A DNA stretch of 34,126 bases from a virus. Taxonomy: Duplodnaviria > Caudoviricetes. The notes beneath the pieces are model-generated. The model was given only the letters and a program-made list of their open reading frames with translations. It ran no database searches and had not been told where the DNA came from. Positions 13,742 through 20,059 of this stretch are shown here, piece after piece. The first letter of the stretch is position 1. Every line of letters begins with the position of its first letter. The stretch spans positions 1 through 34,126 of the IMG/VR virus record IMGVR_UViG_3300037296_000407; one strand, 5' to 3'. The position numbers and the translations under genes are program-made.

Positions 13742-14220
13742 GATTCACCTTTAATATTTAGGTCAACATCTTCGGCCACGCTAATTGGCGCTAGCGATAC
13801 GTAATAACGGGCGCCGTTAAATAAAACAGGGCCGTTGTCGGCGGGTATTAGCTCTATGTCGTCAATTAGTTGCACGTCAATTAATACGGTGGCGTTGTCT
13901 TTGCTTACTACGTCTATGTCTATTTCGGGGTCGTCTAGGCCGTATTCGTCACGTGGCCATTCGCTGTCGATTAAAAAGGCGCCCACCATTGCAAGTAAGT
14001 TGTAAGGATTTACTTTGCGGTGCGGGAATTTTTCTATTGCGATTACGGCGGTGTGTTTCCATTTAGCAACGGCGTAACCTTGTTGGCCTTTGTCTTCGCC
14101 GCTTATAATTAGTGTGCCGCGTTCTTGCCAGGCATCTATGTTATTAGTGTGAATAGCGCCTTTTAAACTGGTGTTTAAAAAGTCGGTTAGTTGCTGCAAT
14201 TGGGTAATTGTTTGGCTCAT
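13738..14220 (-). CDS. R: Tail completion protein (gpR-like)
   Basis: Follows gpL; acidic; L..L..FL, I.AWQE.G and EKFP motifs. Confidence 0.75.
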   Translation of the reverse strand: MSQTITQLQQLTDFLNTSLKGAIHTNNIDAWQERGTLIISGEDKGQQGYAVAKWKHTAVIAIEKFPHRKVNPYNLLAMVGAFLIDSEWPRDEYGLDDPEIDIDVVSKDNATVLIDVQLIDDIELIPADNGPVLFNGARYYVSLAPISVAEDVDLNIKGES

Positions 14221-14666
14221 AGCGTGTGCACTCCTGCGCGGCCAAGGCCAAGCAGTAAACGAATGCTGCGGTTTGATTGCGCTAATATTGCATCTTGCTG
14301 ATCAACGCTATCGGCCTTGTTGTTGCCTGCGTCTTTTTGGTCAACCGATGAAAAGTAGCCCATTAAATCTGAATGCGAACGGGCGTACACAGCGCCACGG
14401 TAAACGCTTTGCTGTGCGGTGCTAAAATTAGGCACGCCGTTTGTTAGGGTGAAAGCAACGTCCGTGTTGTCTTTCATAATGTATTTAAGTATTTGCTGTT
14501 GTACTTCTAGGGCGCTGCGGTTTAATGAGTCGGCAATAACAGACTCTTCGTAAAACTCAGGTATGCGGCGATGATCGCGAAACTCGCCAGTGCTTAGCGC
14601 TGGCCAGCCGCTTTGAGCATCTATTTCAATGCTGTTTTGTGCTGTTGCTTCAAATCCAAATGACAT
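14217..14666 (-). CDS. L: Head completion/stabilisation protein gpL
   Basis: GWP.L....F...RRIP and Y..AVYAR motifs. Confidence 0.88.
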   Translation of the reverse strand: MSFGFEATAQNSIEIDAQSGWPALSTGEFRDHRRIPEFYEESVIADSLNRSALEVQQQILKYIMKDNTDVAFTLTNGVPNFSTAQQSVYRGAVYARSHSDLMGYFSSVDQKDAGNNKADSVDQQDAILAQSNRSIRLLLGLGRAGVHTL

Positions 14667-14789
14667 ACCGCATACCTTAATGCTTACGTTTAAATAAATT
14701 AGGTTCAGTGCAGTTAGCGTCGACGCGGTTATTAACGGTCGCCCGTTAAACGCTCGGCTAGTGCACTGGAGGGTTGGGAGTAATGGCTA

Positions 14790-15518
14790 TTACTGAGCAT
14801 TTAGCTCGGCAATGGCTCTTAATCTCATCGCTATTTTGTTTCGTACTGTTTTAACTTGTGCGTGTTTATGTAGCTCTGCGGCTTTGGCTAAGTAGCCATC
14901 TGCTTGTTGGAGGCGCTGAACGTCGCCCACATGCGATGGCGAAACATCGCCGTTTTTGCTGCGCAGTAACGCAAGGCCTGCAAACTTGTAGTACTTAGCT
15001 GTAACTTGCTCAGGTAATTTCCATGTGTTTGCAACGCACTTAAACACTTGGCCAAAATACGGCTCAATGCTGTTGCCTTTTTCTGCTTGGGTGTCTGCCC
15101 AATCAAAAACAGTGTCAGCAATAAAACCAGGCCACTTGCGGCGTATGCTGTTAGCCATGGGCTGATTGAGTTCAATGGCTCTAAAGCCGAACTCAATACC
15201 ACGTCTGAGATTGCCAACGTCAAACAGCCACACAGTGCAATACGCGAAAATCGGGTTATCTTCATTTTGCTTTCCTTCTTTTGCTAAATAGTCATCAACT
15301 ATGGGCAACCACTTTGGCAATAACACATCACGTTTGTGGGCTATTTTGTCGGCGCGGGTTACATAGCTTTTTAAGCGTTTTAAGTCGTCTTCTAATTCAA
15401 TGAGCTGTAAGTGCAGGCTTGGGGCGTATTGCCCTGATCCTGTTACGCTTACTTTTTCGAGCTGTTTTTTGGCTCGGTTTTTTTCTTTGAATTGGAGGAG
15501 CTTTGCGCCGCCGACGGC
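14790..15518 (-). CDS. M: Terminase endonuclease (small) subunit gpM; the frame has no start codon upstream of its conserved N-terminus and is probably reached by a -1 frameshift
   Basis: Frame open from TGA at 15531-15533; contains SLHLQLIELEDDLKRLKS...DKIAHKRDVLLPKW, WLFDVG and AK.YKFAGL; the first GTG is only at 15326. Confidence 0.85.
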   Translation of the reverse strand, partial: AVGGAKLLQFKEKNRAKKQLEKVSVTGSGQYAPSLHLQLIELEDDLKRLKSYVTRADKIAHKRDVLLPKWLPIVDDYLAKEGKQNEDNPIFAYCTVWLFDVGNLRRGIEFGFRAIELNQPMANSIRRKWPGFIADTVFDWADTQAEKGNSIEPYFGQVFKCVANTWKLPEQVTAKYYKFAGLALLRSKNGDVSPSHVGDVQRLQQADGYLAKAAELHKHAQVKTVRNKIAMRLRAIAELNAQ

Positions 15519-16003
15519 TTTTTTAGCTCTTCAACCGTATCGGCCAAGGCGCTATTAGCGGCGTTAATGTCGTCGGCTTGGTAAGCTAGGTCGCTGGCTG
15601 CATCGCTTGCTTTATCTGCGGCACTTTCAATTTCACCTGCAGCATTGCTTGCGCTGTCTATGCTTTGGTTTAGATCGTCGGTTGCATCTTCAACATTTGA
15701 AACATCAACGCTTTCAATGTTGCCTTTGTCATCAAGGGTGACGTCTGCAACAGTGGTTTTGTCTTCGCCTTCAGCGGCAGGATCAAAACTCATGGTTACA
15801 TTAAAAAAATGAATGTTTTGGTCAACGTACTCTTGCGCTAGTTCAATGGCGTTTGATTCGTCGCAGCCTATCAACTGCGCGAGTAATTTAAGCGCGGTGT
15901 TTTGTGGGGTAATGGTGATTTGCGCATTACCCGTTGTAGCTTTGGTTTCGCCCGCGCTACCTTTAGCTAGGCGGCGTTTTCTAAAATTAGCAATGGCACT
16001 CAT
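15449..16003 (-). CDS. Acidic coiled-coil-like protein, probably the N-terminal part of a frameshifted gpM fusion
   Basis: 184 aa with an AAGG RBS; basic N-terminus and D/S/A-rich heptads; overlaps the gpM frame at CTA AAA AAG. Confidence 0.75.
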   Translation of the reverse strand: MSAIANFRKRRLAKGSAGETKATTGNAQITITPQNTALKLLAQLIGCDESNAIELAQEYVDQNIHFFNVTMSFDPAAEGEDKTTVADVTLDDKGNIESVDVSNVEDATDDLNQSIDSASNAAGEIESAADKASDAASDLAYQADDINAANSALADTVEELKKPSAAQSSSNSKKKTEPKNSSKK

Positions 16004-16030
16004 GGCATTTACCTTTTAATAAATGGGTTA

Positions 16031-16056
16031 ATTGCTAGGCGGTTAGGCCTAGCAAT
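16031..16056. terminator. Stem-loop after the capsid gene (attenuator or mRNA stabiliser)
   Basis: ATTGCTAGGC-ggttag-GCCTAGCAAT, perfect 10 bp stem; no strong U-tract. Confidence 0.55.
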
Positions 16057-16073
16057 GCGTTTACCAATCGCGC

Positions 16074-17102
16074 TTAAGCGTCTGGTGCTGCGCCAATGTT
16101 CATGGCGCTTTCGTCAACTGCGGCATACGCTTCAAACTCTTCAATTGCGTAGCCTTCGTTACGCCAGTATGAGTTTTCGTATTGCTTGCGGTCTTCTTCG
16201 TCTTTTGCTTTGCGGTGCGCGGTGCCTTTTTGCGTATAAATATGCAAGTTGCTTAAAATGGTTACTGCAATGCGTTTACCTGGGAAGAACGGTGGCGTGT
16301 ATGCGCGCATACCACCAATGTTTTTATCCATTTGCTGTGCGGCTACTTTTTCGCTTGGCTTGTCGGCTTGGTTCATCATGTGCGTTTGTGCAGTGGCCGT
16401 AAGGTCACTACCAACCAGTACAACTAGGCGCGGGTCGTTACGTAATGATGGGTGAATAAACGTATTTTTAAGCTCGGTAACAATGGCGTCTAGTGTTTTG
16501 TATTCGCCATCTTTAAGGGCTTGGGTTGCATCTGGGTTAAAGTAAATTGGGTCTGTCATGATTTGATCAGGGGCTTTTTCTTTAACGATTTGATGCCAGC
16601 CTTTGTTTACGTCTTCGCCATTTGGGTTAGCAATTGGGTCTGATGTTGCGGCAGCTGATACACCATTAAAGCCAACGCGCAGCATGTCGAGTGCAAAACG
16701 CAGTGTGCTATTTTGGTTAATGAGTTTCATGAACTCGTTTAAGTTACCGGCATTAGCCCATGTAGATAGCAACGCCCATGTTGTTGCTGAGCACGAATCG
16801 GTTTCGGTCAGTTCATAGGTATTGCCATCAACGCCTTGTTCTGATGTAAAACGACCACCCGCTTTACGGCCTGTTGCAATACCGTAGTTACCTACTTTTA
16901 CAACTTGGCCTTTAATTTGGTCTACTTGCATGGTGGTGATCATGCGCAGGAATTCGACCGACTCTAAAAGCGCGGCGCGCAGTTTTGTTTCCATTGGGTC
17001 TGAAATGGCAAATTTATGTGATGCGTCTCCCACACCAAATGTTTTTGCTAGTTGCGTTGAGTATGTTTTTATAAACCCAGCGGCTGTTTGATTTAAGTGC
17101 AT
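16074..17102 (-). CDS. N: Major capsid protein, P2 family
   Basis: F.I..P.ET.L, ALDMLRVGFNG.S.A, DVNKGW and L.NLHIYTQ.GT motifs. Confidence 0.96.
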   Translation of the reverse strand: MHLNQTAAGFIKTYSTQLAKTFGVGDASHKFAISDPMETKLRAALLESVEFLRMITTMQVDQIKGQVVKVGNYGIATGRKAGGRFTSEQGVDGNTYELTETDSCSATTWALLSTWANAGNLNEFMKLINQNSTLRFALDMLRVGFNGVSAAATSDPIANPNGEDVNKGWHQIVKEKAPDQIMTDPIYFNPDATQALKDGEYKTLDAIVTELKNTFIHPSLRNDPRLVVLVGSDLTATAQTHMMNQADKPSEKVAAQQMDKNIGGMRAYTPPFFPGKRIAVTILSNLHIYTQKGTAHRKAKDEEDRKQYENSYWRNEGYAIEEFEAYAAVDESAMNIGAAPDA

Positions 17103-18280: not shown

Positions 18281-20059
18281 ATGGCCTACTCTTCTGAAAT
18301 TCGTGAAGCCGCTAAGCGGCTTTATTTACGCCACCACACGCCCGACGAAATACGCGCGGAACTGGGGCTAACAAACAACCGTTTAATTTACTATTGGGCC
18401 GAGAAATACAATTGGCGCGATATGCTGCGCGAGGAAGATGTAGACGAAGCTATTGCACGGCGCATTTTAATACTTACCGACGTAAGCGACAAAACAGGCA
18501 ACCAAATAAAAGAGCTAGACATGCTGATAGAAAAGCACGTTAAGCTTAAAAAGCAGCGTGTTGATCAAGCTAAAAAAGCAGCCCAGGCTAACGAGCCACC
18601 AAGCACTAATAAAGGCGGTAACAAAAACAATAATAGCGAAGGGGGTAAAAGCAAAGGCCGTAAACGTAAAAACGATGTTAGCCATTTAACCGAAGAGGAT
18701 TTTGGCACCTGGTACGACTCGTTATTTGAATACCAAAAAACCATGCACGAAAATTTGCATCAACGTATTCGTAATATTTTAAAAAGCCGCCAAATTGGGG
18801 CTACTTATTATTTTGCGGGTGAAGCGTTTAAAAATGCGGTATTAACGGGCGACCCACAAATATTCCTCTCTGCGAGTCGTGCACAGGCTGAGGTGTTTCG
18901 TAGTTATATAATTGCTATTGCGCAAGAATTTTTTGAAATAGAGCTAACCGGTAACCCCATTACGTTACACACCGCCCATGGTGATGCTGAATTAAGGTTT
19001 TTAAGTACTAATAGCAAAACCGCGCAAAGTTACCACGGGCATGTTTATGTAGATGAATACTTTTGGATTGGTAAGTTTAACGAGCTAAACAAATTAGCCA
19101 GTGCTATGGCCACGCACAAAAAGTGGCGTAAAACGTATTTTTCGACCCCATCGACTAAAGCGCACCCTGCTTATACTTTTTGGACGGGTGATCACTGGCG
19201 ACAAGGCCGCGCTGAACGCGAAGAAATTGAGTTTCCGACCTTTGTAGAATTACGCGATAACGGCAGGCTGTGCCCCGATAAACAATGGCGCTATGTAGTT
19301 ACCATTGAAGATGCGCTGCGCGGTGGTTGTGAGCTGTTCGACATTGACGAGCTGCGCGACGAATACAACGCCGATGATTTTAATAACCTGTTTATGTGCA
19401 TTTTTGTGGACGATGCCGACAGTATATTTAAATTTAGCGACCTTGAAAAAGCCATGGTCGATGCCACACGCTGGCAGGATCACAAACCCAATGCGGTACA
19501 GCCATTTGGTAACCGCGAGGTGTGGCTGGGGTATGACCCTTCGCGCACCCGCGATAATGCCGCATTGGTGGTGGTTGCCCCACCCGAAAAAGCAGGCGAA
19601 AAATTTAGAATACTTGAAAAGCATTATTGGCGCGGTATGAACTTTTCGCACCATGTAAGCGAAATTCAAAAAATATACGCTAAGTACCGCGTTACTTATA
19701 TTGGTGTAGATACCACCGGCATTGGCGCGGGGGTGTTTGACTCAATAAGCACATTGTACCCGCGTGAAGCCACCGCCATACATTACAGCGTAGGCAGTAA
19801 AACCCGCTTAGTACTTAAAATGATAGACCTGATTGAAGGTGGCCGACTTGAGTGGGATGCATCCCATAAAGACATTGCTATGAGCTGCCTTTCAATACGC
19901 CGCACCAGTACCGACTCGGGCGGCGCCATAACCTTTAAAGCTAGCCGCGATAACACCATAGGCCATGCAGACGTATTTTTTGCTATTAGCCACGCTGTTA
20001 TTAACGAACCCCTTAACCATGCACATAAGAGAAAATCACGATGGACCATGCAGAATTAG
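18281..20059 (+). CDS. P: Terminase ATPase (large) subunit gpP
   Basis: N-terminal HTH; LKSRQIGAT Walker A, VYVDEYFW Walker B, GYDPSR and HAD.F.A motifs. Confidence 0.97.

Follow-up and report, generated by a model that had tools for sequence, protein, structure and literature searches.

The window, that is, the whole stretch of DNA analysed here, is a provirus record of 34,126 bases. Its gene set is of the P2 type, and integrase, repressor, gpA, portal, large terminase, scaffold O, capsid N, small terminase M, head completion L and HP1-like tail genes were recognised in it with Pfam and PHROG. The order O-N-M-L, with P-Q divergent, is the layout of the P2 family, and the gene for gpP, the protein with which gpM of this family acts in cos cleavage and packaging, is intact at 18281-20059. 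An open reading frame, ORF X, is inserted between N and M. Reading along the minus strand, the features of this region are as follows.

16074..17102, minus strand: major capsid gene N of the P2 family (PF05125, E 4e-98), upstream of X and in the same orientation
16031..16056, minus strand: predicted 10-bp hairpin in the spacer between the capsid stop and the X start
15449..16003, minus strand: ORF X, 184 aa, pI 4.4, the zero-frame product, in no Pfam or PHROG family
15956..15997, minus strand: basic N-terminal helix of X (residues 3-16), conserved and weakly similar to the gpM N-terminal helix
15521..15691, minus strand: long Ala/Asp/Ser-rich helix of X (residues 105-161) with 7-residue periodicity, from AlphaFold and alignment, ending at the slippery site
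15531..15533, minus strand: TGA that closes the gpM frame in the sequence, 6 nt before the heptamer
15518..15524, minus strand: slippery heptamer A_AAA_AAG, then CC, the predicted -1 shift site, conserved in the clade
15498..15512, minus strand: GG(C/A)GG motif and, 7 nt on, a codon, CTC in the window, for which most relatives have ATC, a possible weak hairpin or rival non-canonical start
15464..15470, minus strand: second heptamer, A_AAA_AAC, not conserved
14790..15518, minus strand: coding region of the small terminase gpM, read in the -1 frame, with 242 aa downstream of the shift (PF05944, E 4e-28; phrog_74, E 1e-56)
14217..14666, minus strand: head completion gene L (PF05926), downstream of gpM

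A spacer of 70 nt separates the end of capsid gene N (16074) from ORF X (16003). From 15530 to the TAA at 14790 (246 residues) no stop interrupts the gpM frame, which overlaps X by 82 nt and contains no ATG, GTG or TTG before the GTG at 15326, which is frame residue 69. In the frame of X, the codons CTA AAA AAG set the heptamer A_AAA_AAG (15524-15518), and a -1 shift at this point is predicted to yield an X-gpM fusion of 162+242 = 404 aa. A sequence-only reading of the window had described this arrangement, and its coordinates for ORF X, the gpM frame, GTG 15326, the TGA and the heptamer were all reproduced. It had also placed conserved gpM N-terminal sequence upstream of GTG 15326, where indeed the PF05944 match begins at frame residue 43 and the phrog_74 match at residue 20. 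The heptamer occurs 26 times in the whole window, so the motif alone means little and the case depends on relatives.

The -1 frame encodes a complete small terminase. It scores 98.4 bits against PF05944 (cut-off 29.4) over positions 1-130 of the 130 in the model, of which a protein started at GTG 15326 would cover only 27-130. The predicted structure of gpM (pLDDT 90.6) has a helix at residues 2-26, right after the junction, and matches a viral terminase endonuclease subunit in BFVD (E 5.7e-7); among solved structures in the PDB there was no match at E 0.001, only weak matches to helical repeats. By gpM the nearest annotated phages are the Pseudoalteromonas phages vB_Psp_PY3 (95% identity) and C5a (Catalunyavirus; 93%), with the next at no more than 46%, and both carry the same X and the same heptamer. 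Their GenBank records list X as hypothetical and a truncated terminase of 176-178 aa, with no frameshift annotated. These annotations are what speaks for the view that gpM is simply the short protein that starts at GTG 15326. Such a protein would lose Pfam positions 1-26 and residues that are invariant in this strongly conserved protein, such as APSLHLQ, and the position of the first start codon ranges, among relatives, from 18 to 117 codons inside the match, which makes this view extremely improbable.

The split frame might alternatively reflect an error in sequencing or a prophage gene that is dead and frameshifted, a concern raised by the window being a provirus record. The sequence-only reading had proposed a check of the reads for an indel error; none of the four runs compared lists an indel at the heptamer, and a contig of run X1 is identical over 14753-16200, with 0 differences; this contig possibly comes from the source sample and so is not independent. 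Contigs X21 and X24, from RNA libraries, align to parts of the region with 90-99% identity, which says nothing on expression. The alternative is already refuted by conservation, as gpM is strongly conserved and the same arrangement recurs across the clade described below, in about 110 distinct loci and in the isolated phages C5a and PY3.

Several other features of the window were noted in passing. The tail assembly chaperone gene (8392-8126, minus strand) ends in GTA AAA AAA TAG, with A_AAA_AAA at 8135-8129, and its -1 frame (to 7938) runs for 65 codons to a TAA that abuts the tape measure ATG, a classic G/GT-type site; C5a has the same chaperone A_AAA_AAA site, which its record leaves unannotated. 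Between tail completion genes R and S, which adjoin each other in C5a and PY3, the window has three ORFs of 54, 409 and 100 aa (13741-12034, minus strand). The 409-aa ORF matched nothing in Pfam, PHROG, NCBIfam or PDB sequences; it carries GDS and HPN motifs, which may mark a likeness to SGNH hydrolases, and it begins GTG GAC GAA CTA AAA AAG, an A_AAA_AAG heptamer whose -1 frame stays open for just 12 codons. A tail fibre gene (3768-2224, minus strand) includes a weak FGE-sulfatase-like domain (PF03781), a fold known from variable receptor-binding tips, and an endolysin of the pesticin C-terminal muramidase type (9587-9030, minus strand) lies beside a holin with 3 TM segments.

Conservation of the heptamer among related prophages

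Searches seeded from the frameshift clade itself collected 187 gpM loci, including the window, which reduce to 108 distinct gpM sequences. A gap in gpM identity to the window, at a cut chosen after the data had been seen, divides these into a clade of 92 loci (upper group, at least 56.7%) and an outgroup of 16 (48.8% or less). Within the clade, identity to the window ranges from 56 to 100%, and the named hosts are Pseudoalteromonas, Shewanella, Rheinheimera, Alkalimonas and Colwellia. The heptamer lies in the frame of X in 91 of the 92 clade loci, as A_AAA_AAG in 89 and as A_AAA_AAA in 2, and the sole exception (L059) is interrupted by a contig end. Conservation of the heptamer and the overlap in related prophages, which had been proposed as a check, is thus borne out. 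Since the loci are related, these counts are not independent and overstate the independence of the evidence.

The two groups differ in how gpM could be started. All 16 outgroup loci have their own ATG or GTG 28-32 codons before a conserved SLH anchor in gpM, and X is absent from every one of them. No clade locus has an ATG before the anchor, and the nine that have a GTG have it just 8 codons ahead. Likewise, a gpM start codon of its own by the capsid stop is present in 16/16 outgroup loci versus 0/92 in the clade. The landing point of the shift, 32 codons before the anchor, is where canonical gpM begins. The sequence-only reading had named two observations that would speak against recoding, and neither was made. 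One was a GTG at the GTC GGC GGC codon that acts as an independent start; none was found there, the commonest codons among 35 representatives being GTC (19), ATC (7), GTT (4) and ACC (2). The other was a single continuous X-gpM frame in relatives, which appeared neither among their loci nor in protein searches: there was no in-frame fusion among gpM-profile proteins of 463-2000 aa, a range that misses a fusion of 404 aa, nor among proteins of 323-2000 aa with X. As no relative has an in-frame fusion, there is also no natural proof that the fusion works.

Further loci were collected from other entry points. A survey seeded from Pfam, which took 16/16, 30/30 and the best 30 of 74 matches, recovered the frameshift type in 22 of 76 loci (6, 16 and 0 by set; 3 new); another 50 passed a loose test for a start codon located 15-40 codons ahead of the anchor, and 4 fell in neither class. 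Metagenome loci were of the frameshift type in 45 of 63 cases (19 new), with 17 canonical and 1 cut by a contig end. Among loci anchored on X, whose contigs are largely shared with the metagenome set, 68 of 70 show the arrangement and the other two end before gpM, so that X was never met without gpM behind it.

The arrangement is restricted to one clade of gpM. In a gpM tree of 41 frameshift and 15 canonical rows that kept the very long branch L073, the frameshift rows form one side with support 62/97. A quick tree gave support 97 for the same side, and a thinned tree of 21 versus 11 rows, without L073, L074, L098, L186 and L187, gave 99/95. The simplest reading of these trees is that the arrangement would have arisen once. 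One locus among the deepest branches of the clade (L107, identical to L211) has the smallest X, with 52 aa to the slip site, and a spacer of 8 nt after the capsid gene; it may resemble the ancestral state. In L021 (2444-3052) the X frame is broken mid-gene while the heptamer and gpM are intact, reflecting either an assembly error or inactivation. Distant gpM homologues in L196, L202, L203, L226 and L233 have longer basic N-terminal extensions, some of which are like the first helix of X.

The frame switch and the signals around it

If ribosomes change frame at the heptamer, the constraint on the DNA is expected to change frame there as well. Among 35 representatives with less than 90% identity and the same spacing, entropy at codon positions 1/2/3 of the X frame is 0.85/0.75/1.52 bits before the heptamer and 0.52/0.91/0.62 bits after it. 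The most variable codon position thus passes from the X frame to the -1 frame at the heptamer. Stop codons follow the same boundary: in the -1 frame they fall within the 8 codons before the site in 64/91 loci and within 8 codons from the site in 0/91.

The heptamer itself is maintained beyond what the amino acids of X call for. All 89 loci that have an X start carry A as the base preceding AAA, in the codons CTA, TTA, ATA, GTA and GCA for Leu, Ile, Val and Ala, against a background elsewhere in X of 41% A-ending codons for Leu, 7% for Ile and 24% for Val. Of the 105 other Lys-Lys pairs in X, only 4 create the heptamer. The second lysine codon is AAG in 89 of 91 loci, compared with 136/299 Lys codons before C, a context in which AAG is favoured in general (PMC5009743). 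Two variants narrow the site further. In L086 (Pseudoalteromonas obscura P94) X ends ATA AAA AAG TAA, with the stop directly after the heptamer, and 8 loci have a -1 frame that becomes open 3 nt ahead of the heptamer; the L086 stop and these late-opening loci confine a family-wide shift to a window of about 10 nt. In L066 (2872-3069) about 17 extra codons, open in both frames, lie between the heptamer and the gpM start region. We regard the A kept across four amino acids, along with the L066 and L086 variants, as the strongest single points in favour of the predicted shift.

The heptamer is followed by CC in 83/91 loci, and PMC5009743 gives CC after the site as the most shift-prone context. 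A Shine-Dalgarno (SD)-like patch 17-23 nt upstream has a mean of -2.9 kcal/mol with a peak at -22 to -18 and is strong in some loci; the signal in the window is weak (-2.4 kcal/mol). Downstream, RNAalifold found no conserved 3' structure (2 pairs, -0.3 kcal/mol), mean z values were -0.15 to -0.47, and a search for a stem-loop or pseudoknot 5-9 nt downstream returned weak hairpins in shifting registers only. The GC-rich GCCG-tcgg-CGGC hairpin that had been put forward as a stimulator does not hold up, as its stem starts inside the heptamer, pairs perfectly in 13 of 41 representatives and shows no covariation. Of the A_AAA_AAC noted further on, its presence at 15470-15464 stands and its conservation does not: it is kept in 25/91 loci and in 6/41 representatives, and we rejected it as the main shift site.

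A second conserved element does not fit such a simple account. At the Ile codon lying 26 codons ahead of the anchor, ATC is used in 86/91 loci and 38/41 representatives, compared with 105/529 (20%) of the other Ile codons in gpM, and 7 nt upstream of it the GG(C/A)GG motif forms the strongest anti-SD duplex of the region, with a mean of about -5 kcal/mol. No consensus RNA structure was found at the motif and ATC region. This conserved pair is unexplained by frameshifting and counts against a simple frameshift account; the ATC bias may stem from Ser-Ser in X or from a weak hairpin. It could also be taken to mean that gpM starts independently at the near-invariant ATC, with GG(C/A)GG as its ribosome-binding site and X as a separate gene, and such a start would cost only 2-6 residues relative to canonical gpM. 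However, it would leave the invariant heptamer unexplained, and the codon is CTC in the window and in 2 relatives. Just upstream, the residues G-G-A show conservation in the -1 frame, with variation at the wobble position of that frame, no -1 stop interrupts the stretch from the heptamer to ATC in 91/91 loci, and L058, L066 and L095 have lost GG(C/A)GG but retain the heptamer. We consider an ATC start very improbable. A scan of the coding strand for promoters and terminators found nothing at the X/gpM junction.

The same fusion would also result if RNA polymerase rather than the ribosome slipped on the run of 6 A at the site (7 in two loci) and changed the number of A residues in the mRNA. Polymerase slippage usually needs longer runs. 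At this site the run is kept to 6 A followed by G, exactly in register with the codons, and is not lengthened, which fits tRNA re-pairing, and a contig from the RNA library of one relative crosses the site with no indel listed, although contigs drop rare variants. Transcriptional slippage thus appears very improbable.

The conserved heptamer in the register of X, the frame switch at that point and the lack of a standard start codon support the reading of this locus as a programmed -1 frameshift, with X and X-gpM as its predicted products. That the same phage carries a classic A_AAA_AAA site at its tail chaperone gene also speaks for it. From this comparative evidence, gpM is very probably made as a 404-residue X-gpM fusion by programmed -1 ribosomal frameshifting, likely as the only source of the small terminase.

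ORF X and its upstream spacer

Beyond Pfam and PHROG, NCBIfam also returned no family for X. Its own family, delineated by a profile search, comprises about 40 clusters at 50% identity with lengths of 72-249 aa whose match extends outside the repeat region; further matches to the profile are to low-complexity helix only, and the gpM domain is present in 0 of the best 150. The length of X to the slip site varies from 52 to 227 aa across relatives. Two parts are constant, the basic helix at the N-terminus and an acidic helix, rich in Ala, that has a 7-residue periodicity and ends in Lys-Lys; the middle is optional. AlphaFold models the window's helix 105-161 at low confidence (pLDDT about 56-70, pTM 0.25), and this helix is likely a coiled coil. 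A fold search in the Atlas, in which the query was not the model of the window's own X, gave no match (TM 0.44 at most). Compared by hhalign, the N-terminal helices of X and gpM score 10.7 and 9.6 (E 0.04-0.06), while 15 other gpM segments score 4.5 or less, which suggests that the X helix could be a duplicate of the gpM N-terminal helix.

Database names for X proteins are hypothetical protein or methyl-accepting chemotaxis protein. We rejected the latter, since the window's X is without a Pfam or NCBIfam match and has no MCP signalling domain. We likewise rejected a tail assembly chaperone, as X lies in the head operon and matches no chaperone family, and the true chaperone of the window is encoded at 8392-8126. 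We tentatively propose, at somewhat less than even probability, that X is a head-assembly or packaging helper that binds the fusion by way of the Ala-rich helix common to both and has a second, gpM-like basic N-terminal helix. An alternative is that X serves mainly as a translational leader; the conservation of its two helices argues that X does more than this.

The spacer between capsid and X also has a recurrent feature. A strong hairpin, differing in sequence from relative to relative, is predicted in nearly all representatives (median spacer energy -21.3 kcal/mol); it is doubled in L035 and absent from the 8-nt spacer of L107. No U-run follows it in the window. The hairpin may uncouple X from translation of the capsid gene or stabilise the capsid message.

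The proposed mechanism and its relation to known systems

In the mechanism that we propose, ribosomes would start at the ATG of X, and most would stay in frame and release the 184-residue X, while a fraction would shift to the -1 frame at A_AAA_AAG and make X-gpM. Re-pairing of lysine tRNAs at A_AAA_AAG sites is well established; here they would re-pair from A_AAA_AAG to AAA_AAA and leave the junction L-K-K-A-V-G-G. Because no conserved stimulator accompanies the site, the shift is probably a minority event. A minority shift would fix a high ratio of X to X-gpM, as in lambda G/GT and P2 E/E+E'. One could imagine, as a rather doubtful extension of this model, that X and X-gpM in a fixed ratio co-assemble via the shared coiled coil, and that the gpM-like helix of X occupies or guards the docking site of gpM and so times packaging or shields the terminase from P4-like satellites, making this a lambda G/GT-like system on the packaging machine.

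The mechanism is of a known kind. No report of its use for the small terminase gpM was found in the literature searched, which was mostly open access and excluded supplements. The main text of PMC3711429 does not contain the word terminase, and its supplementary tables of frameshift clusters could bear on novelty; two papers that discuss C5a (PMC10612066 and PMC10232697) do not mention such a frameshift in the portions at hand. The reading would add the terminase to the tail chaperones as a target of programmed frameshifting in tailed phages, in about 110 distinct prophage loci, and would correct annotations in which gpM is truncated and X is a hypothetical or chemotaxis protein. Since synonymous edits at one site could alter the level of gpM in a cultured phage such as C5a, the site would offer a direct handle on how much small terminase a phage of the P2 type requires and on the role of the N-terminal helix of gpM.

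Several known systems resemble this locus in part. Canonical gpM proteins (PF05944, phrog_74), such as those of K139, phiO18P and ESSI-2, belong to the same family and occupy the same place between N and L. However, they start at an ATG of their own that lies only a few nt from the capsid stop, whereas in the clade 150-770 nt with the hairpin and X intervene and a slippery site replaces the start. The E. coli dnaX site, which shifts about 50% of ribosomes, cuts its product short, whereas the shift here extends it and no conserved stimulator was found. It has the same A_AAA_AAG with Lys-Lys decoding (PMC5009743). The only terminase recoding in the accessible part of PMC5009743 is that of Streptomyces phage Hau3, for which translational bypassing linked to a UUA codon was proposed; Hau3 is an unrelated phage, and bypassing differs from a -1 shift between two overlapping genes. 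Programmed frameshifting is well known for phage tail genes, and the closest likeness is to lambda gpG/gpGT and P2 gpE/gpE+E', in which one start codon serves both a short product and a -1 extended product. The ratio of G to GT in lambda, 30:1, matters (PMC5009743), and P2-like E/E+E' sites are without predicted hairpins and do not need 3' structure (PMC3091744). Unlike lambda G/GT-type proteins, X matches no chaperone family, and the -1 frame here is not a short extension but an entire packaging gene of the head operon, one that otherwise stands alone.
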